NCBI RefSeq assembly: GCF_965641715.1
Contig: NZ_OZ282453.1
Strand: one strand, 5' to 3'
DNA length: 64,000 bases
Origin: Escherichia coli
GTDB lineage: Bacteria; Pseudomonadota; Gammaproteobacteria; Enterobacterales; Enterobacteriaceae
Position 1 is the stretch's first letter; every line of letters starts with the position of its first letter. This document shows, piece by piece, positions 5,533 through 49,064 of this stretch. A program made the translations under genes and the position numbers. Under the pieces are notes generated by a model. That model worked only from the letters and a program-made list of their open reading frames with translations. It made no database searches and was not told the origin of the DNA.

Positions 5533-5571
5533 CAGTGTATTGGTAGCTAAAAAGCCAGGGGCGGTAGCGTG
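5533..5571 (+). promoter_or_regulatory. JUMPStart element with ops site (RfaH-dependent antitermination) in the wza leader
   Basis: cagtgtattggtagctaaaaagccaggggcggtagcgtg contains the ops motif GGCGGTAGCGTG (5560-5571) on the coding strand, about 180 bp upstream of wza. Confidence 0.8.
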
Positions 5572-20012: not shown

Positions 20013-20102
20013 AATGAATGCGAAACCGCGGTGTAAATAACGACAAAAACAAAATTGGCCGTTTCGGTCAGGGCCAACTATTGCCTGAAAAAGGGTAACG
20101 AT

Positions 20103-28676: not shown

Positions 28677-28850
28677 ATTTGCGACCATTCCTGGAAAAAT
28701 GGAGCCATACTTAGGAACAATGCTACTGCAATCCACAACGAAGCGGCGTAACATCACAAGTAATTCAGTAATCAATTCAGGGTAATTGATGCTGGCGAAA
28801 AAAATCGAACAAGCTATAATTCAGCAACCATTTTACAGGTGGATGAAATA

Positions 28851-29744
28851 ATGACGAATTTAAAAGCAGTTATTCCTGTAGCGGGTCTTGGGATGCATAT
28901 GTTGCCTGCCACTAAGGCGATTCCCAAAGAGATGCTACCGATCGTCGACAAGCCAATGATTCAGTACATTGTTGACGAGATTGTGGCTGCAGGGATCAAA
29001 GAAATCCTCCTGGTAACTCACGCGTCCAAGAACGCGGTCGAAAACCACTTCGACACCTCTTATGAGTTAGAGTCTCTCCTTGAACAGCGCGTGAAGCGTC
29101 AGCTGCTGGCGGAAGTGCAGTCCATCTGTCCACCGGGCGTGACCATTATGAACGTGCGTCAGGGCGAACCTTTAGGTTTAGGCCACTCCATTTTGTGTGC
29201 ACGACCCGCCATTGGTGACAATCCATTTGTCGTGGTGCTGCCAGACGTTGTGATCGACGACGCCAGCGCCGACCCGCTGCGTTACAACCTTGCTGCCATG
29301 ATTGCACGTTTCAATGAAACGGGCCGCAGTCAGGTGCTGGCAAAACGTATGCCGGGTGACCTCTCTGAATACTCGGTCATCCAGACCAAAGAACCGCTGG
29401 ATCGCGAAGGTAAAGTCAGCCGCATCGTCGAATTTATCGAAAAACCGGATCAGCCGCAGACGCTGGACTCAGACATCATGGCCGTTGGTCGCTATGTGCT
29501 TTCTGCCGATATTTGGCCGGAACTGGAACGTACTCAGCCTGGTGCATGGGGGCGTATTCAGCTGACTGATGCCATCGCTGAACTGGCGAAAAAACAGTCC
29601 GTTGATGCCATGCTGATGACAGGTGACAGCTACGACTGCGGTAAAAAAATGGGCTATATGCAAGCGTTCGTGAAGTATGGGCTACGCAACCTCAAAGAAG
29701 GGGCGAAGTTCCGTAAAGGGATTGAGAAGCTGTTAAGCGAATAA
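28851..29744 (+). CDS. galF: UTP-glucose-1-phosphate uridylyltransferase-like protein GalF
   Basis: 297 aa from [30 protein letters not shown]; conserved 5-prime flank of O-antigen clusters. Confidence 0.95.
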
Positions 29745-30002: not shown

Positions 30003-30041
30003 CAGTGCTCTGGTAGCTGTAAAGCCAGGGGCGGTAGCGTG
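30003..30041 (+). promoter_or_regulatory. JUMPStart element with ops site upstream of the O-antigen cluster
   Basis: cagtgctctggtagctgtaaagccaggggcggtagcgtg; ops GGCGGTAGCGTG at 30030-30041, about 75 bp upstream of the rmlB start. Confidence 0.8.
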
Positions 30042-30115: not shown

Positions 30116-31201
30116 GTGAAGATACTTGTTACTGGTGGCGCAGGATTTATTGGTTCTGCTGTAGTTCGTCACATTATAAATAATACGCAGGATAGTGTTG
30201 TTAATGTCGATAAATTAACGTACGCCGGAAACCTGGAATCACTTGCTGATGTTTCTGATTCTGAACGCTATATTTTTGAACATGCGGATATTTGCGATGC
30301 TGCTGCAATGGCACGGATTTTTGCTCAGCATCAGCCGGATGCAGTGATGCACTTGGCTGCTGAAAGCCATGTTGACCGTTCAATTACAGGTCCTGCGGCA
30401 TTTATTGAAACCAATATTGTTGGTACTTATGTCCTTTTGGAAGCCGCTCGCAATTACTGGTCTGCTCTTGATAGCGACAAGAAAAATAGCTTCCGTTTTC
30501 ATCATATTTCTACTGACGAAGTATATGGTGATTTGCCTCATCCTGACGAGGTAAATAATACAGAAGAATTACCCTTATTTACTGAGACAACAGCTTACGC
30601 GCCAAGCAGCCCTTATTCCGCATCCAAAGCATCCAGCGATCATTTAGTCCGCGCGTGGAAACGTACCTATGGTTTACCGACCATTGTGACTAATTGCTCT
30701 AACAATTATGGTCCTTATCATTTCCCGGAAAAATTGATTCCATTGGTTATTCTCAATGCTCTGGAAGGTAAAGCATTACCTATTTATGGTAAAGGGGATC
30801 AAATTCGCGACTGGCTGTATGTTGAAGATCATGCGCGTGCGTTATATACCGTCGTAACCGAAGGTAAAGCGGGTGAAACTTATAACATTGGTGGACACAA
30901 CGAAAAGAAAAACATCGATGTAGTGCTCACTATTTGTGATTTGTTAGATGAGATTGTCCCGAAAGAGAAATCTTACCGCGAGCAAATTACTTATGTTGCC
31001 GATCGTCCGGGACACGATCGCCGTTATGCGATTGATGCTGAGAACATTGGTCGCGAATTGGGATGGAAACCACAGGAAACGTTTGAGAGCGGGATTCGTA
31101 AAACGGTGGAATGGTACCTGTCCAATACAAAATGGGTTGATAATGTGAAAAGTGGTGCCTATCAATCGTGGATTGAACAGAACTATGAGGGCCGCCAGTA
31201 A
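30116..31201 (+). CDS. rmlB: dTDP-glucose 4,6-dehydratase
   Basis: 361 aa; GTG start; Rossmann motif TGGAGFIGS; conserved RmlB sequence. Confidence 0.95.
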
Positions 31202-32100
31202 TGAATATCCTCCTTTTTGGCAAAACAGGGCAGGTAGGTTGGGAACTACAGCGTGCTCTGGCACCTCTGGGTAATTTGATTGCTCTTGATGTTCACTCCA
31301 CTGATTACTGTGGTGATTTTAGTAATCCTGAAGGTGTAGCTGAAACCGTAAGAAGCATTCGGCCTGATATTATTGTCAACGCAGCCGCTCACACCGCAGT
31401 AGACAAAGCAGAATCAGAACCGAAGTTTGCACAATTACTTAACGCGACGAGTGTCGAAGCGATCGCGAAAGCAGCCAATGAAGTCGGCGCTTGGGTTATT
31501 CACTACTCTACTGACTACGTATTTCCGGGGACCGGTGAAATACCATGGCTGGAGACGGATGCAACCGCACCACTAAATGTTTACGGTGAAACCAAGTTAG
31601 CCGGAGAAAAGGCGTTACAGGAATATTGCGCGAAGCATCTTATTTTCCGGACCAGCTGGGTCTATGCAGGAAAAGGAAATAACTTCGCCAAAACGATGCT
31701 ACGTCTGGCAAAAGAGCGTGAAGAATTAGCGGTTATTAACGATCAGTTTGGTGCGCCAACAGGTGCTGAACTGCTGGCTGATTGTACAGCACATGCCATT
31801 CGTGTCGCACTGAATAAACCGGATGTCGCAGGCTTGTACCATTTGGTAGCCAGTGGTACCACAACCTGGTACGATTATGCTGCGCTGGTTTTTGAAGAGG
31901 CGCGCAAAGCAGGCATTCCCCTTGCACTCAACAAGCTCAACGCAGTACCAACAACTGCCTATCCTACACCAGCTCGTCGTCCACATAACTCTCGCCTTAA
32001 TACAGAAAAATTTCAGCAGAACTTTGCGCTTGTCTTGCCTGACTGGCAGGTTGGCGTGAAACGAATGCTTAACGAATTATTTACGACTACAGCAATTTAA
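31201..32100 (+). CDS. rmlD: dTDP-4-dehydrorhamnose reductase
   Basis: 299 aa; [20 protein letters not shown]; start overlaps the rmlB stop. Confidence 0.95.
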   Translation: MNILLFGKTGQVGWELQRALAPLGNLIALDVHSTDYCGDFSNPEGVAETVRSIRPDIIVNAAAHTAVDKAESEPKFAQLLNATSVEAIAKAANEVGAWVIHYSTDYVFPGTGEIPWLETDATAPLNVYGETKLAGEKALQEYCAKHLIFRTSWVYAGKGNNFAKTMLRLAKEREELAVINDQFGAPTGAELLADCTAHAIRVALNKPDVAGLYHLVASGTTTWYDYAALVFEEARKAGIPLALNKLNAVPTTAYPTPARRPHNSRLNTEKFQQNFALVLPDWQVGVKRMLNELFTTTAI

Positions 32101-32157: not shown

Positions 32158-33036
32158 ATGAAAACGCGTAAAGGTATTATTTTAGCGGGTGGTTCTGGTA
32201 CTCGTCTTTATCCTGTGACTATGGCTGTCAGTAAACAGCTGTTACCGATTTATGATAAACCGATGATCTATTACCCGCTTTCTACACTGATGTTAGCGGG
32301 TATTCGCGATATTTTGATTATCAGTACGCCACAGGATACTCCTCGTTTTCAACAACTGCTGGGTGACGGGAGCCAGTGGGGGCTAAATCTTCAGTACAAA
32401 GTGCAACCGAGTCCAGATGGTCTTGCGCAGGCATTTATCATCGGTGAAGAGTTTATTGGTGGTGATGATTGTGCTTTGGTTCTTGGTGATAATATCTTCT
32501 ACGGCCACGATCTGCCGAAGTTAATGGACGTAGCTGTTAACAAAGAAAGTGGTGCAACAGTATTTGCTTATCACGTTAATGATCCTGAACGTTATGGTGT
32601 CGTTGAGTTTGATAAAAACGGTACGGCAATTAGTCTGGAAGAAAAACCGTTACAACCAAAAAGTAATTATGCGGTAACCGGGCTTTATTTCTATGATAAC
32701 GACGTTGTCGAAATGGCGAAAAACCTTAAGCCTTCTGCCCGTGGTGAACTGGAAATTACCGATATTAACCGTATCTATATGGAGCAGGGGCGTTTATCCG
32801 TTGCCATGATGGGGCGTGGTTATGCATGGCTGGATACGGGGACACATCAGAGTCTTATTGAAGCAAGCAACTTCATTGCCACCATTGAAGAGCGCCAGGG
32901 ACTAAAGGTTTCCTGCCCAGAAGAAATTGCTTACCGTAAAGGGTTTATTGATGCAGAGCAGGTAAAAGCATTAGCTGAGCCGCTGAAAAAAAATGCTTAT
33001 GGCCAGTATCTGCTGAAAATGATTAAAGGTTATTAA
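32158..33036 (+). CDS. rmlA: Glucose-1-phosphate thymidylyltransferase
   Basis: 292 aa; [15 protein letters not shown] nucleotidyltransferase motif. Confidence 0.95.
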
Positions 33037-33040
33037 TAAA

Positions 33041-33592
33041 ATGAACGTAATTAAAACAAAAATTCCAGATGTACTGATTTTTGAACCGAAAGTTTTTAGT
33101 GATGAGCGTGGTTTCTTTTTCGAGAGCTTTAACCAGAAGATTTTTGAGGAAGCTGTAGGCCGCAAAGTTGAATTTGTTCAGGATAACCATTCGAAGTCTA
33201 GTAAAGGTGTTTTACGCGGGCTGCATTATCAGTTGGAACCTTATGCACAAGGAAAATTGGTGCGCTGCGTTGTCGGTGAAGTTTTTGACGTAGCTGTTGA
33301 TATTCGTAAATCGTCATCTACTTTTGGCAAATGGGTTGGGGTGAATTTATCTTCTGAGAATAAGCGGCAATTGTGGATTCCTGAGGGATTTGCACATGGT
33401 TTTTTAGTGCTGAGTGAAACGGCGGAGTTTGTTTATAAAACAACAAATTTTTATTCGTATCCACATGAGCGTAGTATTATATGGAGTGATTCTAATATAA
33501 ATATAAGTTGGCCGCTCCCAAATAGTATGATAAATCTTTCTAAAAAAGATAAGATGGCACCAAATTTAAACATGGAAAATAAAATAAGTTGA
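33041..33592 (+). CDS. rmlC: dTDP-4-dehydrorhamnose 3,5-epimerase
   Basis: 183 aa; cupin-type RmlC sequence (FFESFN...RGLHYQ...). Confidence 0.95.
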   Translation: MNVIKTKIPDVLIFEPKVFSDERGFFFESFNQKIFEEAVGRKVEFVQDNHSKSSKGVLRGLHYQLEPYAQGKLVRCVVGEVFDVAVDIRKSSSTFGKWVGVNLSSENKRQLWIPEGFAHGFLVLSETAEFVYKTTNFYSYPHERSIIWSDSNINISWPLPNSMINLSKKDKMAPNLNMENKIS

Positions 33593-34827
33593 AAAATTCA
33601 ATATTAACAAACATTTTTTCAATGTTCAGCATACAAGGTGTTAATTACATCATTCCTTTGGTGACAATTCCATATCTTGTTAGGGTTTTAGGGTTAGAGG
33701 TTTATGGTAAATATAGTATTATTTTGTCTGTGTTACAATATTTAGTGATAATTACTGATTATGGATTTAATTTGTCTGGAAGTAGGCAGATAGCATTAAG
33801 TCTAAATGATAAGAAAAAAATTTCAAAGATATTTTGTGCGATAATAATATGTAAGGTTATTATTGCTGCAATTTCATTCTTTTCTGTTTTCTTATTTATG
33901 GAATATAATGGTTCTTATAGCGCTTATGTTGAGTTATTTATAAGCGGAATGGGAATTGTTATAGGTACATCATTTTTCCCAGTATGGTTGTTTCAAGGGT
34001 ATGAACGCATGTATTGGATTGCTATCAGTAATTTATTTGCAAAAATTACCGGAGGCATCCTGATTTTTTTACTTGTCCACAATAACAGCGATCTTAATAT
34101 TGCTATTATTATTCAGAGTTGTACTTGTCTCATTTCTGCTGGGATTGCATTAACGACAGCAAGAATAGGGAAGTTTGTTTATTTTCTATGGCCTCCACTA
34201 TCCGAAATAAAAAAACAACTTAAACTGGGTTGGAATATTTTTTTATCGACATTTTTTAGTAGTATGTACACAACAAGCATACCATTGATACTTGGAGTTA
34301 ACGCCGGAGCGGAAGCAGTAGGCGTTTATAATTCCGCAGATAAACTCAAGCAAGCTCTGCAAGGAATAATAGGTCCTGTATCTCAAGCTATTTACCCGCG
34401 CTCAAGCCGTTTATTTTCGCACTCAATTAAGGATGGACTTTCCTTTGTAACAAAAGTCTCGATTTTCTTATGTTCATTTATGTTTCTATGCAGTGCAGTA
34501 GGTTTTTTTCTATCAGAATACATCGTTAATTTAGCCTTTGGTGCAGGACATGAGTCATCTGTTTCAGTATTAAAAATTATAATTTGGATACCATCAGTTG
34601 TTGCTGTTGCGAATATGTTAGGTGTTCAAATAATCTTACCTATGGGATTAACCAAAATCTTTGGCATGACTTATGTAGTTTTGGGAGGAATAGGATTAAT
34701 AATTATGTATGCCGCTTCATATTATGAGTCTTTCATTGGGGTGTCATATGCAGCGATATTAATAGAGATTATTATTACAGTAATCTTTTTGGCAGTTATT
34801 AAGAAGCGCATTAGAGGGAAAGAATGA
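33589..34827 (+). CDS. wzx: O-antigen flippase Wzx (PST family), serotype-specific
   Basis: About 400-aa AT-rich ORF encoding a polytopic membrane protein directly after rmlC. Start is ambiguous: TTG at 33589 (overlapping the rmlC stop) or ATG at 33622. Confidence 0.75.
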   Translation: MKNSILTNIFSMFSIQGVNYIIPLVTIPYLVRVLGLEVYGKYSIILSVLQYLVIITDYGFNLSGSRQIALSLNDKKKISKIFCAIIICKVIIAAISFFSVFLFMEYNGSYSAYVELFISGMGIVIGTSFFPVWLFQGYERMYWIAISNLFAKITGGILIFLLVHNNSDLNIAIIIQSCTCLISAGIALTTARIGKFVYFLWPPLSEIKKQLKLGWNIFLSTFFSSMYTTSIPLILGVNAGAEAVGVYNSADKLKQALQGIIGPVSQAIYPRSSRLFSHSIKDGLSFVTKVSIFLCSFMFLCSAVGFFLSEYIVNLAFGAGHESSVSVLKIIIWIPSVVAVANMLGVQIILPMGLTKIFGMTYVVLGGIGLIIMYAASYYESFIGVSYAAILIEIIITVIFLAVIKKRIRGKE

Positions 34828-35741
34828 TTTATATATCTGTATGTATACCGACAAAAAATAGGCTTGACTATTTGACAAAAACAGTTGAGTCTATTATCAA
34901 TGATAACGTTGATGTTCATGCATATGAAATAGTTATTGCAGATAATTCTGACGATGATTTAACAGAAAAGTATGCAAGAGAATTAATGGATAGTGGGTAT
35001 AATATCAAATATTATAAAAATCCACAAACTGGGTTTTACAACTCTATTCAAGCACTTCAGTTAGGTGATGGTGCATTTCTTAAGTTACATAATGATTACA
35101 CCAGCTTCAATAAAGGAGGTTTTAAAAAACTATTCGATCATGTAGTAAAAAATTATGACTCTCGAAATATGCTTTTCTTCACTAATGGAGCATTGGGGGC
35201 CGTATCGACAAAATATGAATGTACTTCATTTGATAAGTTTGTATTTAATGCAAGTTATTTGATTACTTGGAGTTCGTCATTTTCTATTTGGAAGGATGAC
35301 TTTATTGAATTGGAAACAAAACCTGATGATCTCAATGAGATGTTCCCTCACACCAGCCTTATTTTACAATCAAATAATAAAATATTCTCAATAGTAGATG
35401 AATCTATTTTTAAAAATATTAGTGTATCAAGAAAAGGGGGGTATAATATATTTTATAATTTTTGTGTGTTATTTTTGGATATGCTTGATATTGAAAAAAA
35501 GAAAGGCTTGTTGTCAGAAAAAACAATAAAAAAGGTAAAAAGAGATATGTATTATAAGTTTGTAATGGTTTGGTACTATCGGACAATTCAGAACAATAAA
35601 AGAAGATATACCTTTGATAACGAAAATGCGTATGAGAATATTAAAAAAGCATATGGATTTATAGGTTTTTCTGGTGTGTTTTTAGTAGCTAAAGCCAAAT
35701 ATTTCTTTGATAAAATATTTGGCTTTTTCGTTAAAAGTTAG
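34824..35741 (+). CDS. Glycosyltransferase family 2 (O-antigen)
   Basis: 305 aa; N-terminal GT2 signature ISVCIPTKNR...IVIADNSDDD; AT-rich; sugar specificity unknown. Confidence 0.75.
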   Translation: MIYISVCIPTKNRLDYLTKTVESIINDNVDVHAYEIVIADNSDDDLTEKYARELMDSGYNIKYYKNPQTGFYNSIQALQLGDGAFLKLHNDYTSFNKGGFKKLFDHVVKNYDSRNMLFFTNGALGAVSTKYECTSFDKFVFNASYLITWSSSFSIWKDDFIELETKPDDLNEMFPHTSLILQSNNKIFSIVDESIFKNISVSRKGGYNIFYNFCVLFLDMLDIEKKKGLLSEKTIKKVKRDMYYKFVMVWYYRTIQNNKRRYTFDNENAYENIKKAYGFIGFSGVFLVAKAKYFFDKIFGFFVKS

Positions 35742-35747
35742 TATGGA

Positions 35748-37064
35748 TTGAGCATGATTATGCAGTTAAGAACAAATATTTCTGGGAGGGTGGGGCTTTG
35801 GTTGATTTTATTTACCATTTTTGGGGGAGCTTATAAGACTGCATTTGGAACTATTAGTACATCATATATATCATTTGTCTGGGGTGGCTGGATTTTAATT
35901 ATATATATATATCATTCATATTATGTAAGACTTAATTTCTTATATAGGATTAGCAGAAGTTATTATCTATATGCATTTTTTATATCTGTGTTGTTAATAG
36001 TATCTCTTATACAATTCTCATTTTTCGGTATAGGTGATATGCTGAATATTGACTTACAACTAAAAAGAGTAATGCAGGCAATAGTATCATTTACATTTTT
36101 TGCTATAACTGCTGATTATATTATTAACAAATTGACTGTTAGGGATTTATTCTTAGGAATCATATATTTTCTGTTATTTATAACGTTGTTGTGTGTTATA
36201 CAATTATCAAATGATTCATTTAGAATATGGTATTTGAATCTTACTGCAATTGATGGATACTGGTATGAGTGGGCCCAGAAAAGTAATCGAGCGATTGGAT
36301 TAAAGGCTATGTCTATTTGGGATACATCAGTATCCTATTCATTCCTGTTATTTATAGCATTTGCTGCATACTTTCAATTAAAAAATAAAAATATTCTTCT
36401 ATATTTATTTGTAGCATTGGTTTTTCTATTGATTGTTATGAGTGGCAGGACTGGATTATTATTTTTTATTGTATTTTCCTGCCTTCTATCAATCAGGTAT
36501 AAAATTTATGGATTCATGTTTACATATGCAATAACTTCGGTTATCTGCATTTTTTTTATTATGCTTGTGAGTGAAAGTGAGACTGTTTTACGTGTAATAA
36601 ATTTTGCTTTTGAATTAATTATGAATATTATAAATGGGAAAATTGAAACAAACTCAACAGATGATCTTATTAATAATCACTTATTTATACCTCATTTAGA
36701 TAACATATTTTGGGGTGATAATATTTATATTGGTGATGGTGATGAAGTAATTTCAAAAATTGGCCGTTCATCTGACTCCGCATTTGTTATTAACTATGTT
36801 TCTAATGGAGTGATTGGTTTTTTCATAACATCTATTCTGGCCATCATTAATGGGAAAATGATATTTAGTTATTTTAATATTCACAATAAAAGTGTTTTTT
36901 ATTTTTTTGTTTTGCTTGTTTGTTTTTTTCTGTCATTTGGTTTGTATATAAAGGTATTGGTATATGTTAGTGCTACTTTGTTGAAAGCAATGATATTTAC
37001 AACTATATGTTTAAATCATATTTTTAAAAATAAAATAATAGTTCGGAAAACTTATGAGAAATGA
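35748..37064 (+). CDS. wzy: O-antigen polymerase Wzy (candidate)
   Basis: 438 aa, extremely hydrophobic with 10 or more predicted TM segments, rich in I/F/L/Y, no recognisable soluble domain; position between wzx and the transferases. Family call from membrane topology only. Confidence 0.65.
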   Translation: MSMIMQLRTNISGRVGLWLILFTIFGGAYKTAFGTISTSYISFVWGGWILIIYIYHSYYVRLNFLYRISRSYYLYAFFISVLLIVSLIQFSFFGIGDMLNIDLQLKRVMQAIVSFTFFAITADYIINKLTVRDLFLGIIYFLLFITLLCVIQLSNDSFRIWYLNLTAIDGYWYEWAQKSNRAIGLKAMSIWDTSVSYSFLLFIAFAAYFQLKNKNILLYLFVALVFLLIVMSGRTGLLFFIVFSCLLSIRYKIYGFMFTYAITSVICIFFIMLVSESETVLRVINFAFELIMNIINGKIETNSTDDLINNHLFIPHLDNIFWGDNIYIGDGDEVISKIGRSSDSAFVINYVSNGVIGFFITSILAIINGKMIFSYFNIHNKSVFYFFVLLVCFFLSFGLYIKVLVYVSATLLKAMIFTTICLNHIFKNKIIVRKTYEK

Positions 37065-37614
37065 GAAATTAATTATTTTAATTTTACGTGGTGGACCATC
37101 ATTCTATCGCAGACTCAGAAGTCGAATATATGCAATGATTTTCAATACTGAAAAGTTGACAATTGGTAGAAATGTTTCTCTGTCAGGCACGAACAATATT
37201 TACTTTGGACGTAACGTATTGGTTGGAAATCAATCATGGTTGGCGGCGATAAACTCGGGGAAAATAATTATTGGAGATAATGTATCATTAAGTCAAAATG
37301 TGCATATAGCTGCTAATCAATGCGTTAGAATAGGAAATGGTTGTTTGATAGGAAGCGATGTTTTAATAACAGATCACAATCATGGTTATGGCAGAGAACT
37401 AATATATGTTCCACCTAAAGAACGTAAGTTAATTATTAAAGGAAGCACTGAAATTGGTGAAAATTGTTGGTTGGGTGATAATGTGAAAATATTAAGTGGA
37501 GTTGTTTTAGGGAGCAATGTAGTTGTTGGTGCAAATTCTGTTGTAACACGGAGTTTTCCAGCTAACTGTATTATAGGTGGTATACCAGCAAAACTAATAA
37601 AAAAAATACAATGA
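37054..37614 (+). CDS. O-acetyltransferase, hexapeptide-repeat (maltose/galactoside acetyltransferase-like) family
   Basis: 186 aa; hexapeptide repeats and HNHGYG-like motif (IGDNVSLSQNVHIAANQ...ITDHNHGYG...IGENCWLGDNVKILSGVVLGSNVVVGANSVV); overlaps the wzy 3-prime end by 11 nt. Confidence 0.75.
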   Translation: MRNEKLIILILRGGPSFYRRLRSRIYAMIFNTEKLTIGRNVSLSGTNNIYFGRNVLVGNQSWLAAINSGKIIIGDNVSLSQNVHIAANQCVRIGNGCLIGSDVLITDHNHGYGRELIYVPPKERKLIIKGSTEIGENCWLGDNVKILSGVVLGSNVVVGANSVVTRSFPANCIIGGIPAKLIKKIQ

Positions 37615-37632
37615 TATAAGGGTAGTGTTTTT

Positions 37633-38562
37633 ATGACGGTAGATATTATTATAGCAACATATAATGGCGAAAAATACATAAGGGAACAAGTGGAGTCTAT
37701 ACTCAATCAAACATATAAGAATTTTCATTTATATATACGTGATGATGGTTCTACTGATAAGACAAAAGATATTATTTATGACTTGAAATGTTTAGACGAT
37801 AGAATTATTTTGATTGAAGATGATATTATTAATAATGGTGTTGGAGAAAACTTTAAAATACTATTAAAACATTGCTCCGCTGATTATGTTTTTATTGCGG
37901 ATCAGGATGATGTATGGGAAAAAAGTAAGATAGAAGAGCTGCTCTCTTTTGCTATAAAAAATTTACCTACAAACTCGCCAGGTATTGCATATGCCCCAGG
38001 ATATGTTGTTGATGAACATTTGTATTCATCAAAGTTAAAAATGACAAATACAGACAATAAAGTTAAAAGTCTTGGTGATATGATCTTAATGAATGGCGGA
38101 GTGCAAGGATGTGCAATGGTTATTAATCGATGTCTATATCAGATGGTTCTCCGTACCAATTTTTATTGGTATATGCATGATCAAGTATTAAGTCTTTATG
38201 CTATTTGTTTTGGTTATATATTGTTTTTACCTAAACCATTATTTAGATACCGGCAGCACTCTAATAATGTATTAGGATATAATTCAGGAGGGGTGAAGTT
38301 ATGGTTCAAAAAATATATCCGCTCCAGAAGGAATACTTTTTTAATTAACAAACATACAGATAAGTTGTTTTGTGATTTTTTTTCTAGTGAGTCGTTTAGA
38401 ATGAGAAAAAATCAACATGATTTTTTCTTTTCATATATGGGCTCCAGAAAAAATAAAGTTAAGTTTTTGTATTACATTATAACCAATAAAATATTTCTAC
38501 GTGGGAAGCTAACTAACGCTATTATTAAAACGTTGTTAGTTAAAGATATTGTTGAACGATGA
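37633..38562 (+). CDS. Glycosyltransferase family 2 (O-antigen)
   Basis: 309 aa; N-terminal IIIATYNGEKYI...YIRDDGSTD GT2 signature. Confidence 0.75.
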   Translation: MTVDIIIATYNGEKYIREQVESILNQTYKNFHLYIRDDGSTDKTKDIIYDLKCLDDRIILIEDDIINNGVGENFKILLKHCSADYVFIADQDDVWEKSKIEELLSFAIKNLPTNSPGIAYAPGYVVDEHLYSSKLKMTNTDNKVKSLGDMILMNGGVQGCAMVINRCLYQMVLRTNFYWYMHDQVLSLYAICFGYILFLPKPLFRYRQHSNNVLGYNSGGVKLWFKKYIRSRRNTFLINKHTDKLFCDFFSSESFRMRKNQHDFFFSYMGSRKNKVKFLYYIITNKIFLRGKLTNAIIKTLLVKDIVER

Positions 38563-38592
38563 GTTATTTATAATAAAATGGATGGTTGAATA

Positions 38593-39699
38593 ATGAATGT
38601 TGTTTTTTCGGCAAATACATCATGGTATTTATATAATTTTAGGCAAAATACCATAAGAAGGTGTATCAAAAAAGGGCACAGTGTTTATATCATTGCCCCT
38701 GAAGATGAATACACTGAAAAACTAGTAAGTCTTGGTGTTAAGAAATATAATCTATTTTTAAATGGAAGTTCACTAAATCCATTTGTTGATATTGTTAGTG
38801 TATTCCATTTGTTTTTACTTTATTTTTTTATTAAACCTGATGTTGTCTGTAATTTTACCCCGAAGTTAAATGTTTATAGCTCTCTCGTCTCATTTTTTTA
38901 TCCAAAGATTAAAGTCATAAATAACATATCGGGTTTAGGTTCTGCTTTTGTATCGAATAATATAAAGAAAAGTATGCTTCATATATTATACAAAATAACA
39001 CAGAGAAGAGCTGATATTATTTTTTTTCAAAATAATGATGATTTGTCTTATTTTTTAGAACATCGACTGGTTCAGGAAATAAAAACAAGATGCGTTATAG
39101 GTTCGGGAGTTGATATTAACAAATTTAAAGTAACAAAAATAGACAGAGAAAAATGTATAAAGTTTATACTTGTTGCTCGTCTGATTGAGCATAAAGGAAT
39201 TCGATTGTATGTTGAGGCTGCCAGACTTATAAAAAGTAAATATCCCTTTACACATTTTGCATTGCTGGGGCCTAGCATTGATTCACATCCATCATCAATT
39301 AATTTAGATGAGGTTCATAGATGGACTGAGTTGGGGTATATTGATTATCTTGGTCATTCAGATGATGTTGCAAATGTTATTGCTGATTTCGATTGTGTTG
39401 TACTACCTTCCTATTATCGTGAAGGTGTTCCCAAATCATTACTTGAGGCAGCTGCATCGGGTAAAATAATAATTACTACAAACACAGTAGGTTGTAGAGA
39501 CTCTGTCATTGAAAATGTTACTGGGTTTCTTTGTGAACCTCGCTCGTTAGAAAGCTTAATCGGAGCCTTGGAAAGAGTATTACAACTTAATGAGAATGAG
39601 TTTATTAATATGAAAATATCAGCAAGACATCTGGCTGAAGAAAAGTTTGATGAGAATATCAACATAAAAAAATATATTGATTCTATTGAAAACAAGTAG
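38593..39699 (+). CDS. Glycosyltransferase family 4 (O-antigen)
   Basis: 368 aa; C-terminal GT4 region REGVPKSLLEAAASGKIIITTNTVGCRDSV. Confidence 0.75.
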   Translation: MNVVFSANTSWYLYNFRQNTIRRCIKKGHSVYIIAPEDEYTEKLVSLGVKKYNLFLNGSSLNPFVDIVSVFHLFLLYFFIKPDVVCNFTPKLNVYSSLVSFFYPKIKVINNISGLGSAFVSNNIKKSMLHILYKITQRRADIIFFQNNDDLSYFLEHRLVQEIKTRCVIGSGVDINKFKVTKIDREKCIKFILVARLIEHKGIRLYVEAARLIKSKYPFTHFALLGPSIDSHPSSINLDEVHRWTELGYIDYLGHSDDVANVIADFDCVVLPSYYREGVPKSLLEAAASGKIIITTNTVGCRDSVIENVTGFLCEPRSLESLIGALERVLQLNENEFINMKISARHLAEEKFDENINIKKYIDSIENK

Positions 39700-39724
39700 T
39701 ATTTAATTCGATATAGGTTTATAC

Positions 39725-40783
39725 ATGAAGATATTTCTTTGCTCTCTCTATTATGAGTCAAAAAGAGTTACAGGTGCAAATAAACGGTTTGATTATTTTG
39801 GGAAATATCTTGCTAGAAATGAAGAAGTTTCGTTGACGGTTATTGTTCGTGATGGGGAGATACCGTCATGGGCAACTGATGCTATTGTTTTACCAAAATA
39901 TCAGTACTTGCCACCTTTATTTCGCAGAATTCTATATTGGTTGCATTTGTCAAAAATATTTTTTAAATGTGACAATATAATAATTAGTGATTTTATGCCG
40001 ATTCCGTTTATTCCTTTTAAAGGTAATGATAATTATTACCAGTTAGTTCATGACATCCGCAATTTTACCGATTACAATAGAGCTTTTTTTAAAAAAATGG
40101 CAAGTGTATTTCAAGGATATCAATGGCGCAAAACACAAAATATTCTCACAGTGAGTAATTTTACTAAATGGCAATTGATTAGATATTGTAATGTTAATGA
40201 GAATAAAATAAAAGTATCCTATAATGGAATTGAGCTTATTGAAAGGAACAAACTTGTAAGAGATATTGATTTTTTATATATAGCTACATTTGAAAAAAGA
40301 AAAAATCATGATAATTTAATAAAGGCTTTTTATTATTATGTTAATGAAATAAACACCAATGCGAAATTATATCTAATTGGTAGGGATTTAGGATATAAAA
40401 AGAGTATTTTAGAGCTTGTATCGTCGCTTCAGTTATCACAATCAGTGATTTTTATTGATTCTGTTAGCGAAAATGAGTTGAGTAGAATTTATGAAAGAAC
40501 TCATTGCTTTATCAGTCCTTCTCTCTATGAAGGATTTGGTATGCCGATTATTGAAGCGATGTACCATGGTTGTAATGTGGCTTGTAGTAACATTGATGTT
40601 TTCCGTGAAATAGCTCAGAATCATGCTTCGTACTTTGAACCGGATAATATTCATAGTATTATAGATGCAATGTGCCTTGCACGAGAGTATGAAAATAACA
40701 ATCCCGAAACTCTTCATTATGTAAATGTTAATTTTTCTTGGGATTCTATAACTGCTAAATTTTTAGAGGACGTTAGATATTAA
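39725..40783 (+). CDS. Glycosyltransferase family 4 (O-antigen; possibly a mannosyltransferase)
   Basis: 352 aa; GT4 EX7E region EGFGMPIIEAMYHGCNVACSNIDVFREI; lies immediately upstream of manC-manB. Confidence 0.7.
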   Translation: MKIFLCSLYYESKRVTGANKRFDYFGKYLARNEEVSLTVIVRDGEIPSWATDAIVLPKYQYLPPLFRRILYWLHLSKIFFKCDNIIISDFMPIPFIPFKGNDNYYQLVHDIRNFTDYNRAFFKKMASVFQGYQWRKTQNILTVSNFTKWQLIRYCNVNENKIKVSYNGIELIERNKLVRDIDFLYIATFEKRKNHDNLIKAFYYYVNEINTNAKLYLIGRDLGYKKSILELVSSLQLSQSVIFIDSVSENELSRIYERTHCFISPSLYEGFGMPIIEAMYHGCNVACSNIDVFREIAQNHASYFEPDNIHSIIDAMCLAREYENNNPETLHYVNVNFSWDSITAKFLEDVRY

Positions 40784-40784
40784 C

Positions 40785-42185
40785 ATGATTCAACCTGTAA
40801 TTATTGCTGGGGGCGTTGGTTCTAGATTATGGCCGCTTTCTAGGGAACAGTACCCAAAACAATTTCTTACATTATTAAATGATAAGAGTTTACTTCAAAA
40901 TACATTATTACGACTCAAAGATCTGCATCATTTACCTCCCATAATCGTATGCAACCATGAGCATAGATTTTTAGTCGCTGAACAATTAAGGATGGAATCT
41001 ATTAATGTTGGTGGAATTATTTTAGAACCTAAAGGAAAAAATACAGCTCCAGCTGTTGCCCTTTCAGCCTTTTTTGTAAATAGATGTGAGATAAACTTAG
41101 AGAAGGATCCTGTCTTATTAGTGTTAGCTGCGGATCATGTTATTGATGATACGGATGGATTTTTAGCTGCAATAAATAGTGCTTTACCTCTTGCGCAGAA
41201 CGGTATGTTAGTGACTTTTGGTGTTGTTCCTACTCATCCTGAAACAGGATATGGATATATCCAGACTGGCAAGAAAATAATAGATAATTCATTTGAAATT
41301 ATTGATTTTAAAGAAAAGCCATCATTAGAAAAAGCGCAGGAATATTTAGATAGTAAAAACTATTTATGGAATAGTGGTATGTTTATGTTTCGTGCGTCTA
41401 CTTATTTAAATGAGTTGAAAAAATTCAGATCTGATATTTATGATGCTTGCTTTGATGCCATGAATTCCTCAAGTTTTGATTTTGATTTTGTTCATGTAAA
41501 TAAAGAAAATTTTTCATTGTGCTTATCTGAATCAATCGATTATGCTGTCATGGAGCAAACAGATAAAGGTGTTGTTGTCCCCATTGATATAGGATGGAGT
41601 GACATTGGTTCGTGGTCAGCTCTTTGGGATGTTTGTAGTAAAGATACTAATAATAATGTTATTAAAGGGGATGTCATAGATCATGATTCTCATAATTGTT
41701 TTATCATCGCTGAGACATCCTTAGTTACTACTATTGGTCTTAATAATCTTATTATTATTCAAAGCAATGATTCACTACTTATTGCTGACCGTCATTCTTC
41801 CCAAATGGTGAAGAATATAGTTGACGAACTCAAGGAAAAAGAACGTCATGAATATTATTTCCATTCGGAGGGATATCGGCCTTGGGGAAAATATAAAACA
41901 ATTGATACCGGGGAAAACTATCAAGTAAAACGAATTACTGTGAGGCCTGGAGGGAAACTATCAATGCAAATACATTATCATCGTGCTGAACATTGGGTTA
42001 TTGTCTCTGGTACAGCAAGAGTTATAGTTGATGGCAATACCAAATTGCTTAGAGAGAATGAATCTATATACATTCCTCAGGGATGTATTCATAGTTTAGA
42101 AAATCCAGGAGAAACTCCTCTCGATATAATAGAGGTTCGCTCAGGTGTTTATCTTGAAGACGATGATGTTGTGCGCTTTCAATAG
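40785..42185 (+). CDS. manC: Mannose-1-phosphate guanylyltransferase (O-antigen copy)
   Basis: 466 aa; same domain order as cpsB ([14 protein letters not shown]...cupin) but AT-rich and divergent at DNA level. Confidence 0.9.
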
Positions 42186-42232: not shown

Positions 42233-43603
42233 ATGAAACAATTAACCTGCTTTAAAGCCTATGATATTCGCGGGAAATTAGGCGAAGAACTGAATGAAGA
42301 TATCGCCTGGCGTATTGGGCGCGCCTATGGCGAATTTCTCAAACCGAAAACCATTGTGTTAGGCGGTGATGTCCGCCTTACCAGCGAAACCTTAAAACTG
42401 GCGCTGGCGAAAGGTTTACAGGATGCGGGAGTCGACGTGCTGGATATTGGTATGTCCGGCACTGAAGAGATCTATTTCGCCACGTTCCATCTCGGCGTGG
42501 ATGGCGGCATTGAAGTTACCGCCAGCCATAATCCGATGGATTATAACGGCATGAAGCTGGTGCGCGAGGGGGCTCGCCCGATCAGCGGTGATACCGGACT
42601 GCGCGACGTCCAGCGTCTGGCAGAAGCCAACGACTTTCCTCCCGTCGATGAAACCAAACGCGGTCGCTATCAGCAAATCAATCTGCGTGACGCTTACGTT
42701 GATCACCTGTTCGGTTATATCAATGTCAAAAACCTCACGCCGCTCAAGCTGGTGATCAACTCCGGGAACGGCGCAGCGGGTCCGGTGGTGGACGCCATCG
42801 AAGCCCGCTTTAAAGCCCTCGGCGCACCTGTGGAATTAATCAAAGTACACAACATGCCGGATGGCAATTTCCCCAACGGTATTCCTAACCCGCTACTGCC
42901 GGAATGTCGCGACGATACTCGTAATGCGGTCATCAAACACGGCGCGGATATGGGCATTGCCTTTGATGGCGATTTTGACCGCTGCTTCCTGTTTGACGAA
43001 AAAGGGCAGTTTATTGAGGGCTACTACATTGTCGGCCTGTTGGCAGAAGCATTCCTCGAAAAAAATTCCGGCGCGAAGATCATCCACGATCCACGTCTCT
43101 CCTGGAACACCGTTGATGTGGTGACTGCCGCAGGCGGCACCCCGGTAATGTCGAAAACCGGACACGCCTTTATTAAAGAACGTATGCGCAAGGAAGACGC
43201 CATCTACGGTGGCGAAATGAGCGCCCACCATTACTTCCGTGATTTCGCTTACTGCGACAGCGGCATGATCCCGTGGCTGCTGGTCGCCGAACTGGTGTGC
43301 CTGAAAGGGAAAACGCTGGGCGAACTGGTACGCGACCGGATGGCAGCATTTCCGGCAAGCGGTGAGATCAACAGCAAACTGGCGGACCCCGTTGAGGCGA
43401 TTAACCGCGTGGAACAGCATTTTAGCCGTGAGGCTCTGGCGGTGGATCGCACCGATGGCATCAGCATGACCTTTGCCGACTGGCGCTTTAACCTGCGCAC
43501 CTCCAACACCGAACCGGTGGTGCGCCTGAATGTGGAATCGCGCGGTGATGTGCCGCTGATGGAAGAAAAAACAAAACTTATTCTTGAGTTACTGAGTAAG
43601 TAA
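42233..43603 (+). CDS. manB: Phosphomannomutase (O-antigen copy; mosaic with cpsG)
   Basis: 456 aa; codons 3 to about 444 are near-identical in DNA to cpsG (20109-21434), while the first two codons and the last 13 codons ([14 protein letters not shown]) are AT-rich and different. Confidence 0.95.
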
Positions 43604-43766: not shown

Positions 43767-45173
43767 ATGTCAAAGCAACAGATCGGCGTCGTCGGTATGG
43801 CAGTGATGGGGCGCAACCTTGCGCTCAACATCGAAAGCCGTGGTTATACCGTCTCTATTTTCAACCGTTCCCGTGAAAAGACGGAAGAAGTGATTGCCGA
43901 AAATCCAGGCAAGAAACTGGTTCCTTACTATACGGTGAAAGAGTTTGTTGAATCTCTGGAAACGCCTCGTCGCATCCTGTTAATGGTGAAAGCAGGTGCA
44001 GGCACGGATGCTGCTATTGATTCCCTCAAACCATATCTCGATAAAGGCGACATCATCATTGATGGTGGTAACACCTTCTTCCAGGACACCATTCGTCGTA
44101 ACCGTGAGCTTTCTGCTGAAGGCTTTAACTTCATTGGTACCGGTGTCTCCGGTGGAGAAGAAGGCGCGCTGAAAGGTCCTTCCATTATGCCTGGTGGGCA
44201 GAAAGAAGCCTATGAACTGGTTGCGCCGATCCTGACCAAAATCGCCGCAGTGGCTGAAGACGGTGAGCCATGCGTTACCTATATTGGTGCCGATGGTGCA
44301 GGTCACTATGTGAAGATGGTTCACAACGGTATCGAATACGGTGATATGCAACTGATTGCTGAAGCCTATTCTCTGCTTAAAGGTGGCCTGAACCTCACCA
44401 ACGAAGAACTGGCGCAGACCTTTACCGAATGGAATAACGGTGAACTGAGCAGCTACCTGATCGACATCACCAAAGATATCTTCACCAAAAAAGATGAAGA
44501 CGGTAACTACCTGGTTGATGTGATTCTGGATGAAGCAGCAAACAAAGGTACGGGTAAATGGACCAGCCAGAGTGCGCTGGATCTCGGTGAACCACTGTCG
44601 CTTATTACCGAGTCTGTGTTTGCACGTTATATCTCTTCTCTAAAAGATCAGCGCGTTGCCGCATCTAAAGTTCTCTCTGGTCCGCAAGCGCAGCCAGCTG
44701 GCGACAAGGCTGAGTTCATCGAAAAAGTTCGTCGTGCGCTGTATCTGGGCAAAATCGTTTCTTACGCCCAAGGCTTCTCTCAGCTGCGTGCTGCGTCTGA
44801 AGAGTACAACTGGGATCTGAACTACGGCGAAATCGCGAAGATTTTCCGTGCTGGCTGCATCATCCGTGCGCAGTTCCTGCAGAAAATCACTGATGCATAT
44901 GCCGAAAATCCGCAGATCGCTAACCTGCTGCTGGCTCCGTACTTTAAACAAATTGCCGATGATTACCAGCAGGCGCTGCGTGATGTCGTTGCTTATGCAG
45001 TACAGAACGGTATCCCGGTTCCGACCTTCGCCGCTGCGGTTGCCTATTATGACAGCTACCGCGCCGCTGTTCTGCCTGCGAACCTGATCCAGGCACAGCG
45101 TGACTATTTCGGTGCGCATACTTATAAGCGCATTGATAAGGAAGGTGTGTTCCATACTGAATGGCTGGATTAA
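43767..45173 (+). CDS. gnd: 6-phosphogluconate dehydrogenase, decarboxylating
   Basis: 468 aa; [21 protein letters not shown]; highly conserved Gnd. Confidence 0.95.
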
Positions 45174-45421: not shown

Positions 45422-46588
45422 ATGAAAATAACAATTTCAGGAACAGGTTATGTTGGTCTTTCAAATGGTATTCTGATTGCGCAAAACCACGAAGTGGTTG
45501 CACTGGATATCGTTCAGGCCAAAGTGGACATGCTTAACAAGAAGCAGTCACCGATTGTTGATAAGGAGATTGAAGAGTATCTGGCGACTAAAGATCTCAA
45601 TTTCCGCGCTACGACAGATAAGTATGACGCGTATAAAAATGCCGATTACGTTATTATTGCCACACCTACCGATTATGATCCGAAAACGAATTATTTTAAT
45701 ACCTCAAGCGTGGAAGCGGTCATTCGCGATGTGACAGAAATTAATCCCAACGCGGTAATGATTATAAAATCAACTATCCCTGTTGGTTTTACAGAGTCCA
45801 TTAAAGAACGTTTTGGTATTGAAAATGTGATCTTTTCGCCTGAGTTTTTGCGTGAAGGTAAAGCACTTTATGATAACTTACACCCATCACGCATTGTGAT
45901 TGGCGAGCAGTCTGAACGCGCTGAACGTTTTGCTGCGTTATTACAGGAAGGCGCCATTAAGCAAGACATACCAACATTGTTTACTGACTCAACCGAAGCT
46001 GAGGCGATTAAACTTTTTGCCAACACTTATCTGGCTATGCGTGTAGCGTATTTCAATGAACTTGATAGTTATGCTGAAAGCCTGGGGCTTAATTCACGCC
46101 AGATTATTGAGGGCGTATGCCTTGATCCGCGTATCGGTAATCACTACAACAACCCGTCATTCGGTTATGGCGGTTATTGTCTGCCGAAAGATACCAAGCA
46201 GTTACTGGCAAATTACCAGTCTGTGCCGAATAACCTGATCTCGGCAATTGTTGACGCCAACCGCACGCGCAAAGATTTTATTGCCGATTCTATCCTTGCA
46301 CGTAAACCGAAAGTTGTTGGCGTCTATCGTCTGATTATGAAGAGTGGTTCGGACAATTTCCGTGCTTCCTCGATTCAGGGTATTATGAAGCGAATCAAGG
46401 CGAAAGGTGTGCCAGTAATCGTTTATGAGCCAGCGATGAAAGAGGACGATTTTTTCCGTTCGCGCGTGGTACGTGATCTGGATGCGTTCAAACAAGAAGC
46501 TGATGTTATTATTTCTAACCGTATGTCTGCCGATCTGGCTGATGTAGCAGATAAGGTTTATACGCGCGACTTGTTTGGCAATGATTAA
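45422..46588 (+). CDS. ugd: UDP-glucose 6-dehydrogenase
   Basis: 388 aa from [16 protein letters not shown]; the ORF-track start at 45395 is rejected; the C-terminal 30 codons differ from the K-12-like duplicate at 47836-47937. Confidence 0.95.
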
Positions 46589-46653: not shown

Positions 46654-47658
46654 TCAAACTTTATAGAAGTTACGATACCATTCTACAAAGTTCTTTACCC
46701 CCTCTTTAACTGACGTTTCAGGTTTGAATCCTATTACGTCATACAGTGCTTTTGTATCAGCACTGGTTTCCAGTACATCACCGGGTTGGAGAGGCATCAT
46801 ATTTTTGTTGGCTTCAATACCCAGAGCCTCTTCTAAGGCATTGATATAGTCCATCAACTCCACAGGCGAACTATTACCAATGTTATAGACACGATATGGT
46901 GCTGAACTTGTTGCAGGAGAGCCTGTTTCAACAGCCCACTGTGGATCTTTTTCTGGAATAACATCCTGTAAGCGAATAATAGCTTCGGCAATATCATCAA
47001 TATAAGTAAAGTCACGCTTCATTTTGCCGAAGTTGTAAACATCAATGCTTTTACCTCCCAACATGGCTTTAGTGAATTTAAATAATGCCATATCCGGACG
47101 TCCCCATGGACCATAAACCGTAAAGAAACGCAGCCCTGTGGTCGGTAAGCCATACAAATGAGAATACGTATGGGCCATGAGTTCATTCGCTTTTTTAGTT
47201 GCTGCATAAAGCGAAACAGGATGATCTACAGAGTCATCTGTGGAGAAAGGCATCTTGCGGTTCATGCCATAAACAGAACTGGAGGAAGCGTAAAGTAGAT
47301 GCTGAACACTATTATGGCGACATCCTTCCAGTATGTTCAGGAATCCAATCAGGTTTGCATCTGCATATGCATTGGGATTTTCAAGGGAGTAACGTACACC
47401 GGCTTGCGCAGCGAGGTTTATTACGCGTTCGAACTGCTCGTCTGCAAACAGTGCCGCCATTTTCTCACGATCAGCCAGGTCAATTTTATAAAAACTGAAG
47501 TTGTCGTGCTTGAGTAAATCAAGTCGTGCTTGTTTGAGGTTGACATCGTAATAATCATTTAAGTTGTCAATGCCTACAACCTGATGACCAGCTGCAAGAA
47601 GCCGTTTACTTACATAGAAACCGATAAAGCCAGCAGCTCCCGTAACCAGAAATTTCAT
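46654..47658 (-). CDS. gla: UDP-glucuronate 4-epimerase (NAD-dependent SDR; Gla/WbnF/CapI-like)
   Basis: 334 aa; MKFLVTGAAGFIGFYVSKRLL...YASSSSVYG...YAATKK; closely resembles UDP-GlcA 4-epimerases from memory; minus strand, opposite to flanking ugd and wzz. Confidence 0.8.
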   Translation of the reverse strand: MKFLVTGAAGFIGFYVSKRLLAAGHQVVGIDNLNDYYDVNLKQARLDLLKHDNFSFYKIDLADREKMAALFADEQFERVINLAAQAGVRYSLENPNAYADANLIGFLNILEGCRHNSVQHLLYASSSSVYGMNRKMPFSTDDSVDHPVSLYAATKKANELMAHTYSHLYGLPTTGLRFFTVYGPWGRPDMALFKFTKAMLGGKSIDVYNFGKMKRDFTYIDDIAEAIIRLQDVIPEKDPQWAVETGSPATSSAPYRVYNIGNSSPVELMDYINALEEALGIEANKNMMPLQPGDVLETSADTKALYDVIGFKPETSVKEGVKNFVEWYRNFYKV

Positions 47659-47937: not shown

Positions 47938-48083
47938 CATCCTGTTATCAGGGCGATTTTCGCCCTGATTCTCTTATGTTCCATTTGTAATAATTCATTA
48001 TTTTTATCATTTATCCTATAGCATTCATGGCGATTATCGCTAAACTATGGCGACTTAAAATTATTTCGTCCGTTAGGGTAATG

Positions 48084-49064
48084 ATGAGAGTAGAAAATAA
48101 TAATGTTTCTGGGCAAAACCATGACCCGGAACAGATTGATTTGATTGATTTACTGGTGCAGTTGTGGCGTGGCAAGATGACAATTATCATCTCTGTCATT
48201 GTTGCTATTGCCCTGGCTATAGGGTATCTGGCCGTTGCCAAAGAAAAGTGGACTTCCACTGCTATCGTTACTCAACCTGATGTGGGGCAAATCGCTGGTT
48301 ATACCAACGCGATGAATGTGATTTACGGTCCGGCTGTACCGAAAGTCTCCGACATTCAGGCTTCACTTATCGGACGTTACAGCACTGCATTCTCAGCATT
48401 AGCGGAAACGCTGGATAACCAGGAAGAAGCAGAAAAGCTGACCATTGAGCCTACCGTTAAAAATCAGTCATTACCTTTAGCGGTGTCTTATGTTGGTGAA
48501 ACACCTGAAGGTGCTCAGAAGCAGCTGGCGAAGTATATCCAGCAAGTTGACGACCAGGTAAACGTAGAGCTGGAAAAAGACTTGAAAGACAACATCGCGC
48601 TGCGTATGAAAAACTTGCAGGACTCTTTAAGAACTCAGGAAGTAGTCGCGCAAGAGCAGAAAGATCTGCGTATCCGTCAGATTCAGGAAGCGTTGCAGTA
48701 TGCGAATCAGGCGCAGGTGACAAAACCGCAAATTCAACAGACTGGCGAAGATATCACGCAAGATACGTTGTTCCTTTTGGGGAGCGAAGCGCTGGAGTCG
48801 ATGATTAAGCACGAGGCGACCCGTCCGTTGGTGTTCTCACCAAACTACTATCAGACACGTCAAAACCTGCTGGATATCGAAAGCTTAAAAGTTGATGATC
48901 TTGATATTCATGCTTACCGCTATGTAATGAAACCGACGTTACCTATTCGTCGCGATAGCCCGAAAAAGGCAATTACCTTGATTCTGGCGGTGCTGCTGGG
49001 CGGCATGGTTGGCGCGGGGATTGTGCTGGGGCGTAATGCTCTGCGTAATTACAACGCGAAGTAA
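48084..49064 (+). CDS. wzzB: O-antigen chain-length determinant (polysaccharide co-polymerase 1)
   Basis: 326 aa from MRVENNNVSGQNHDPEQIDLIDLLVQLWRGK; TM1 near the N-terminus and TM2 near the C-terminus (ITLILAVLLGGMVGAGIVLG). Confidence 0.9.
   Translation: MRVENNNVSGQNHDPEQIDLIDLLVQLWRGKMTIIISVIVAIALAIGYLAVAKEKWTSTAIVTQPDVGQIAGYTNAMNVIYGPAVPKVSDIQASLIGRYSTAFSALAETLDNQEEAEKLTIEPTVKNQSLPLAVSYVGETPEGAQKQLAKYIQQVDDQVNVELEKDLKDNIALRMKNLQDSLRTQEVVAQEQKDLRIRQIQEALQYANQAQVTKPQIQQTGEDITQDTLFLLGSEALESMIKHEATRPLVFSPNYYQTRQNLLDIESLKVDDLDIHAYRYVMKPTLPIRRDSPKKAITLILAVLLGGMVGAGIVLGRNALRNYNAK

Follow-up and report, generated by a model that had tools for sequence, protein, structure and literature searches.

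Among described E. coli clusters, that of O62/O68 has the order rmlBDAC-wzx-wekA-wbcC-wzy-wfaV-manC-manB (PMC4384082). In common with the locus described here, it places rmlBDAC at the 5′ end and manC-manB at the 3′ end with wzx, wzy and transferases between, but its transferases number three, it has no acetyltransferase gene and its Wzy is 372 aa long (PMC4384082). The O62/O68 wzx primers have no match in the window, the 64,000-nucleotide stretch of E. coli DNA analysed here, and O62/O68, O75 and O150 were all rejected on gene content or primers. The O antigen of O58 and Shigella dysenteriae type 5 contains a Rha derivative, two Man and an O-acetyl group. This seemed the best fit but was rejected, as the window has no annealing site for the Og58 wzy primers.

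We are confident, though short of certain, that the region 33589-42185 is the serotype-specific core of a Wzx/Wzy-dependent O-antigen cluster at the normal galF-gnd locus, and a rare allele that has moved by recombination in its flanks. The order galF, JUMPStart/ops, rmlBDAC, module, manB, gnd, ugd and wzzB is that of the standard E. coli O-antigen locus, with the module lying between galF (28839-29744) and gnd on the chromosome. The same context is seen in a RefSeq-annotated genome whose copy of the 8.6-kb module is 100% identical (wcaM, galF, rfbBDAC, module, a cpsG-like manB, gnd, ugd, wzzB, his). The module consists of eight co-directional, tightly packed ORFs, positioned as in the preliminary description. 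The features are:

30030-30037, + strand: ops element GGCGGTAG, part of the JUMPStart sequence; rmlB lies 79 bases downstream
30116-31201, + strand: rmlB, dTDP-L-rhamnose synthesis (RefSeq rfbB, Pfam)
31201-32100, + strand: rmlD, dTDP-L-rhamnose synthesis (RefSeq rfbD, Pfam)
32158-33036, + strand: rmlA, dTDP-L-rhamnose synthesis (RefSeq rfbA, Pfam)
33041-33592, + strand: rmlC, dTDP-L-rhamnose synthesis (RefSeq rfbC, Pfam)
33589-34827, + strand: wzx, O-unit flippase, 412 aa; TTG start overlapping the rmlC stop codon
34824-35741, + strand: GT2 glycosyltransferase a (GT2a), 305 aa; 4-base overlap with the end of wzx
35754-37064, + strand: wzy, predicted O-antigen polymerase, 436 aa
37054-37614, + strand: hexapeptide-repeat (left-handed beta-helix) acyltransferase, WbbJ-like, 186 aa; 11-base overlap with the end of wzy
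37633-38562, + strand: GT2 glycosyltransferase b (GT2b), 309 aa
38593-39699, + strand: GT4 glycosyltransferase a, 368 aa; E-x7-E motif EGVPKSLLE
39725-40783, + strand: GT4 glycosyltransferase b, 352 aa; E-x7-E motif EGFGMPIIE
40785-42185, + strand: manC, AT-rich allele, the final gene of the variable module
42233-43603, + strand: manB, phosphomannomutase, GC-rich (54%)
43767-45173, + strand: gnd, housekeeping flank gene
45422-46588, + strand: ugd, housekeeping flank gene
48027-49064, + strand: wzzB, chain-length regulator (coordinates of the ORF; the RefSeq start is further in)

Profiles, motifs and fold bear out every gene call of the preliminary description (wzx, GT2, wzy, acetyltransferase, GT2, GT4, GT4, manC). 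The TTG start of wzx at 33589 also stands, since an orthologue with an ATG start, in the distant cluster L007 described below, conserves the additional N-terminal residues. The wzy ORF is present, but RefSeq begins it at ATG 35754 and not at the TTG 35748 first chosen. The sharp fall in G+C content is clear, with 30.9% in the module versus 48.2% in the whole window. Individual module genes have G+C contents of 27-35% (GC3 20-26%), with wcaM, galF, manB and gnd at 48-54%, and the combined fraction of Ile, Lys, Asn, Phe and Tyr is 0.28-0.43 in module proteins versus 0.22-0.31 in those of the flanks. The AT-rich tract had been placed between the rml genes and manB; it starts, however, already in rmlC (36% G+C), and rmlBDA are intermediate (43-48%).

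The ops element is expected, from its sequence and placement, to be the site of RfaH-dependent antitermination for the operon. The octamer is weakly enriched across the window overall, so it is the placement upstream of rmlB that counts. At the other end the right-hand recombination junction is marked by manB, which shares 95.7% identity with the colanic-acid cpsG copy (20101-21435) over 1335 bases. The module had been considered the only accessory content of the window. This is not so, because an SDR epimerase gene at 46654-47658 occurs in just 278 of 5426 genomes. The epimerase was assessed as a cluster-specific source of UDP-GalA and rejected, as it also adjoins an unrelated O-antigen cluster.

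Wzx matches the MOP-family flippase profile PF01943 (E = 1e-53) and displays ten hydrophobic peaks in a hydropathy plot. The manC product scores 702 bits against TIGR01479, above the cut-off of 373 bits. Both GT2 enzymes match PF00535 (precomputed for identical proteins) and each matches PDB structures of GT-A enzymes. In GT2a, which is weakly GT2-like beyond the first 112 residues, the sole DXD motif is DDD at residues 43-45; GT2b has DQD. Both GT4 enzymes match PF00534. All four transferases fall short of every NCBIfam equivalog cut-off. The acetyltransferase matches PF00132 and PF14602 and is nearest to WbbJ (NF007240, E = 3.5e-39), with a score of 134 bits that is under the 243-bit cut-off; judged by these profiles it is a hexapeptide-repeat acyltransferase and not a WbbJ equivalog. 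The cluster contains no initiating transferase.

Gene identities, folds, the ops site, synteny and identity to S. dysenteriae Wzx and Wzy are established, and a pathway can be proposed. Transcription would begin upstream of rmlB, with RfaH recruited at ops carrying it through the long AT-rich operon. RmlBDAC would supply dTDP-L-rhamnose, and ManC with ManB GDP-mannose. WecA, encoded outside the window, would start the unit by placing GlcNAc or GalNAc on undecaprenyl phosphate, and the four cytoplasmic transferases would extend it. Alpha-L-Rha or a beta-linked hexose would probably be added by the two inverting GT2 enzymes and alpha-D-Man by the two retaining GT4 enzymes, and the soluble hexapeptide acetyltransferase would O-acetylate one sugar. 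Wzx would then flip the finished unit for polymerisation by Wzy in the periplasm, with WzzB setting chain length and WaaL ligating the chain to lipid A-core. The sugar order, linkages, unit size, acetylation site and expression are what we infer.

Is the 436-aa membrane protein indeed the polymerase? It has no Pfam match even at E ≤ 10 and no NCBIfam match at E ≤ 0.01, and its best solved-structure match is the ligase WaaL, not a Wzy; both points favour a different role, as a ligase-like protein or some other GT-C enzyme, in which case polymerisation would be done elsewhere. Without a Pfam or NCBIfam polymerase model the assignment draws on fold, topology and position. The preliminary description would have taken fewer than eight TM helices as refuting the Wzx/Wzy prediction; 12 TM-like helices are found, in keeping with a polytopic inner-membrane protein (about 8-14 TM helices with a large periplasmic loop). 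The protein has the WaaL/Wzy/SEDS membrane fold, and its loop at residues 294-342 bears invariant residues including Asp304, His309 and Asp341. Sequence identity to the WaaL O-antigen ligase and to the SEDS proteins RodA and FtsW (PDB codes 7tpj, 8tj3, 6pl5, 8bh1) is 8-13%; a family profile search against PDB sequences matched no chain, and Foldseek against the PDB returned nothing significant. Given the known great diversity of Wzy proteins, the profile miss lowers the case for membership of a named family, not the functional call. The window ORFs include neither wzm/wzt nor a second polymerase candidate and, with each ORF between galF and gnd assigned another function, none is left as an ABC-transporter gene. 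The prediction that the protein is the O-antigen polymerase Wzy is supported, and we find it very hard to credit that it is not a polymerase.

What the polymerase acts upon, and whether the product is displayed, are further matters. The O-acetylated Rha/Man pentasaccharide predicted earlier is plausible, yet four transferases do not necessarily mean five sugars. The same pathway could yield a unit of four or six sugars, or a branched one, through a side branch, a non-stoichiometric residue, or a bifunctional or inactive transferase, and it might draw on UDP-ManNAc or UDP-GalA synthesised outside the module. That no donor is assignable to any transferase, the limited GT2 character of GT2a, and the position of ugd and the epimerase just downstream fit such a unit. 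All four transferases are, however, full length and each has a one-to-one counterpart in the distant orthologous cluster, catalytic motifs are retained in GT2b and in both GT4 enzymes, and the epimerase is not specific to this cluster. We regard departure from a linear pentasaccharide as possible but doubtful. With respect to display, E. coli O34, O89 and O144 type strains possess full clusters and are rough (PMC7685785), and the complete genome ES5 has frameshifts in wzx, wzy and manC, which would suit an intact but silent cluster, or a rough strain, with no O antigen of this type at the surface. The ES5 differences are few, though, scattered over the AT-rich module, and resemble long-read errors, and every ORF is intact in the window, as it is in five of the six complete genomes with the module. 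Shigella serotypes are defined by the expressed O antigen, and the record of identical Wzx and Wzy under S. dysenteriae thus argues that the present cluster type can be expressed. Silence appears improbable, and we retain the reading of a functional Wzx/Wzy-dependent cluster.

The preliminary description would have counted the cluster as described had wzx and wzy matched a known serogroup at over 95% identity. Wzx and Wzy share 100% identity with S. dysenteriae A0A510B230 (putative O-antigen transporter) and A0A510B225 (Wzy), respectively, along the whole of each Shigella entry, a match of these two at the protein level and not of whole-cluster DNA, and on that measure the cluster is already described. 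The protein cluster of the acetyltransferase also includes an S. dysenteriae name. On these sequence matches the cluster is not new but an ordinary, intact, rare type with key genes public under S. dysenteriae. Which serotype might this be? S. dysenteriae types 3-9, 11-13 and 18 correspond to E. coli O groups. The set has primers for all of these but type 7 (O121), and none matched the window. Type 16 carries gmd/fcl. Types 10, 14, 15 and 17 together with the provisional types remain as the main candidates.

Primers for 137 E. coli O groups (PMC7403468 supplement) gave no match in the window with two mismatches allowed, the assays not extending to O24, O26, O30, O34, O36, O45, O52, O57, O59, O61, O95, O97, O99, O103, O104, O111, O112ac, O121, O145, O155, O157, O158, O183-O185, O187 and the OX groups. 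Those for OgN1, 3, 5, 8, 9, 10, 12, 31 and OSB16 gave none with three mismatches allowed. The cluster thus falls outside that portion of the classical scheme which the primers cover. O141 and OgN8, considered in view of pig hosts and rmlBDAC, were rejected when their primers did not match, and EPEC001, EPEC080 and the OgN-RKI types have a different gene content or no link to the cluster. Perhaps the polysaccharide has never been chemically characterised. Carriers would in that case be untypeable in O1-O187 and the cluster a candidate new E. coli O group, shared with a late-numbered or provisional S. dysenteriae serotype, and its Wzy would stand for a small polymerase family (25 clusters among 5.8 billion proteins) outside all curated profiles; we advance this tentatively, at somewhat short of an even chance.

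The whole module occurs at no less than 99.6% identity in six of 5426 complete E. coli genomes, and the exact module proteins on about 80-250 contigs each; the carriers found are E. coli from pigs and humans. One assembly, GCA_014329535.1, shares 21.3 kb with the window at 100% identity. From rmlB to ugd the DNA is nearly identical among strains that differ by 3-4% in the wca/galF and wzz/his flanks. In one locus (L004) sharing is limited to positions 33-42 kb, and in several strains gnd and ugd travel together with the cluster. Block breakpoints fall in the rml genes, in manB or past ugd. Such a pattern suggests that homologous recombination in the conserved flanks carries the rare allele from one E. 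coli background to another. A more distant relative is the cluster L007, from a non-E. coli enterobacterium (GCA_053586265.1). The gene order from wcaM to ugd is identical, including wzx-GT2-wzy-AT-GT2-GT4-GT4-manC-manB, but amino-acid identity across the module is just 57-73%, and the 77% identity of WcaM indicates another species. Conservation of the gene set over this distance argues that the cluster works as one unit.

The carriers, from pigs and people, are E. coli of commensal type. They would likely be O-untypeable with tools limited to the classical groups, or receive a Shigella O type where a database has one, so the significance is mainly a matter of bookkeeping, and nothing in the locus touches an open question. 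With a block of 9-16 kb nearly identical across strains, the locus is a clean example of O-antigen allele movement.

The O-antigen module at 33589-42185 is a rare allele that has been deposited previously, and its annotation is correct and routine. Exact-sequence look-up found all seven module proteins queried in public collections, each on approximately 80-250 contigs. The Wzx cluster includes UniProt A0A510B230 ("Putative O-antigen transporter") and the Wzy cluster A0A510B225 ("Wzy"), both from Shigella dysenteriae. The choice of start codon is the sole difference between these entries and the proteins of the window, and A0A510B225 was also recovered at 100% identity in an independent AFDB50 match. 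The preliminary description held that wzx and wzy matching a known serogroup at over 95% would make this a described cluster; at 100% protein identity to the S. dysenteriae entries, it is one. Among 5426 complete E. coli genomes the module occurs in six (three from pigs, three from humans) at an identity of at least 99.6%, and 21.3 kb of the window has a 100% match in a draft assembly, GCA_014329535.1. The copy of the 8.6-kb module in a complete E. coli genome from a Canadian pig, NZ_CP149565, is 100% identical, and the RefSeq annotation of that genome is given here with the ops element of the window.

NZ_CP149565, left part: wcaK-L-M, galF, rfbBDAC, then the module
NZ_CP149565, module labels: flippase, glycosyltransferase, hypothetical protein, acyltransferase, glycosyltransferase, two GT4 proteins, manC
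NZ_CP149565, after the module: cpsG-like manB, gnd, ugd, SDR epimerase (opposite strand), wzzB, his operon
Window, 30030-30037: ops octamer GGCGGTAG within a JUMPStart-like sequence, 79 bases 5' of rmlB

The surroundings are ordinary E. coli chromosome, with udk, dcd, asmA, yegH and the colanic-acid cluster to the left and his, yeeZ, sbcB and dacD to the right. Further copies of the octamer lie on the + strand at 4973-4980 and 5560-5567, the latter placed, by extrapolation from the reference genome, between yegH and wza upstream of the colanic-acid operon. The SDR gene, an accessory 'NAD-dependent epimerase' of 334 residues (46654-47658, - strand) between ugd and wzzB, is found in 278 of the 5426 complete genomes and also adjoins an unrelated O cluster. 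Its top identity among complete genomes is 98.8%, whereas the adjacent module reaches 100% in two of them. In NZ_CP149565 a short pseudogene remnant is annotated beside it.

All eight module ORFs of the preliminary description were found on the + strand with exactly the coordinates it gave. They are tightly packed, wzx and GT2a overlapping by 4 bases, wzy and the acetyltransferase gene by 11. The contrast drawn there between an AT-rich module and GC-richer surroundings is borne out: G+C is 0.52-0.56 in the colanic-acid genes, drops to 0.27-0.35 at 33.5-42 kb and is back at 0.49-0.56 in manB and gnd. Individual module genes have 27-35% G+C and a GC3 of 20-26%, compared with 48-54% G+C for wcaM, galF, manB and gnd; the rml genes are intermediate (36-48%). 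The fraction of I, K, N, F and Y residues is 0.28-0.43 in the module and 0.22-0.31 in the flanks.

Pfam, NCBIfam and PDB matches, together with motifs, support the earlier calls for the genes other than wzy. Wzx matches Polysacc_synt (PF01943, E=1e-53), and the long form of the protein, with its start at TTG 33589, is backed by an ATG-starting orthologue that keeps the added N-terminal residues. Both GT2 proteins match PF00535 and solved GT-A enzymes; both GT4 proteins match PF00534 and carry E-x7-E motifs. ManC scores over the TIGR01479 cut-off and ManB over that of the CpsG subfamily. The 186-residue protein is a hexapeptide-repeat acyltransferase nearest to WbbJ, scoring under the cut-off of the WbbJ model. 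None of the four glycosyltransferases reaches an equivalog cut-off among the NCBIfam profiles, so donor and acceptor are not assignable.

The Wzy candidate (436 residues, 35754-37064) matched no Pfam entry even at E<=10, no NCBIfam family and no PDB sequence. A search of 5.8 billion sequences gave 25 related protein clusters, all unnamed, from Edwardsiella, Providencia, Proteus, Erwinia, Pectobacterium, Pantoea, Xenorhabdus, Morganella and Vibrio. This small family has neither a Pfam nor an NCBIfam model, and RefSeq labels its members 'hypothetical protein'. An AlphaFold model built with 21 related sequences as input is confident (pLDDT 84.8, pTM 0.89) and predicts 12 TM-like helices, with invariant residues placed in a periplasmic loop, 294-342. 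Fewer than eight helices had been named as evidence against a Wzx/Wzy system; the predicted 12 are consistent with that assignment.

Gene families, folds, ops site and synteny are shown by the analysis, and neither an initiating transferase nor an ABC transporter is present within the cluster. Knowledge of the Wzx/Wzy pathway provides the basis for the biosynthetic steps we infer. WecA would initiate the unit, and the GT2 pair, which is inverting, and the GT4 pair, which is retaining, would add four residues drawn from dTDP-L-rhamnose, GDP-mannose and common UDP-sugars, with the soluble acetyltransferase supplying an O-acetyl group. The unit would then be flipped by Wzx and polymerized by Wzy, the chain length set by WzzB and the chain ligated by WaaL. 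An O-acetylated pentasaccharide containing rhamnose and mannose, as first proposed, is a reasonable prediction for the product.

Which serotype might this be? In-silico PCR with 137 primer pairs published for E. coli serogroups, two mismatches permitted, gave no match, nor did primers for OgN1, 3, 5, 8, 9, 10, 12 and 31 and OSB16. Primer mismatch thus rules out most of the classical E. coli O scheme, including O58 (S. dysenteriae 5), O141, O75, O150 and O62/O68. A published table gives the E. coli O groups corresponding to S. dysenteriae types 3-9, 11-13 and 18; primers for all of these except O121 (type 7) were tested without a match. Type 16 carries gmd/fcl. The candidates left are mainly S. 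dysenteriae types 10, 14, 15 and 17 and the provisional types.

One complete-genome carrier, strain ES5 (NZ_CP133871), has wzx and manC annotated as pseudogenes and wzy, GT2a and the acetyltransferase gene fragmented. Its differences from the window are few and spread over the AT-rich module; they have the look of errors in long-read assembly, not of true decay.

Positions 24000-51000 of the window were compared with five other carriers. Differences are nearly nil from rmlB to ugd (30-46 kb). In wca/galF three of the five diverge by 3-4%, and divergence is similar across the epimerase, wzz and his beyond ugd in L001, the sole compared locus reaching there. In another, L004, the shared block is just 33-42 kb, the module as first delimited, and rmlBDA and manB diverge. 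This mosaic pattern of identity shows that homologous recombination, with breakpoints that vary, has moved the allele. The manB gene (42233-43567) and the colanic-acid cpsG (20101-21435) form direct repeats 22 kb apart, with cpsG upstream; their identity is 95.7% across 1335 bases and 97% in the first 300. Published work explains the O14 deletion by recombination between copies of this kind (PMC7685785). A different enterobacterial species has a fully syntenic cluster (GCA_053586265.1, 3344-16840), acetyltransferase and all four transferases included, with module proteins 57-73% identical to those of the window and WcaM 77%. Synteny at this level of divergence argues that the gene set is old and has been inherited as a single unit.
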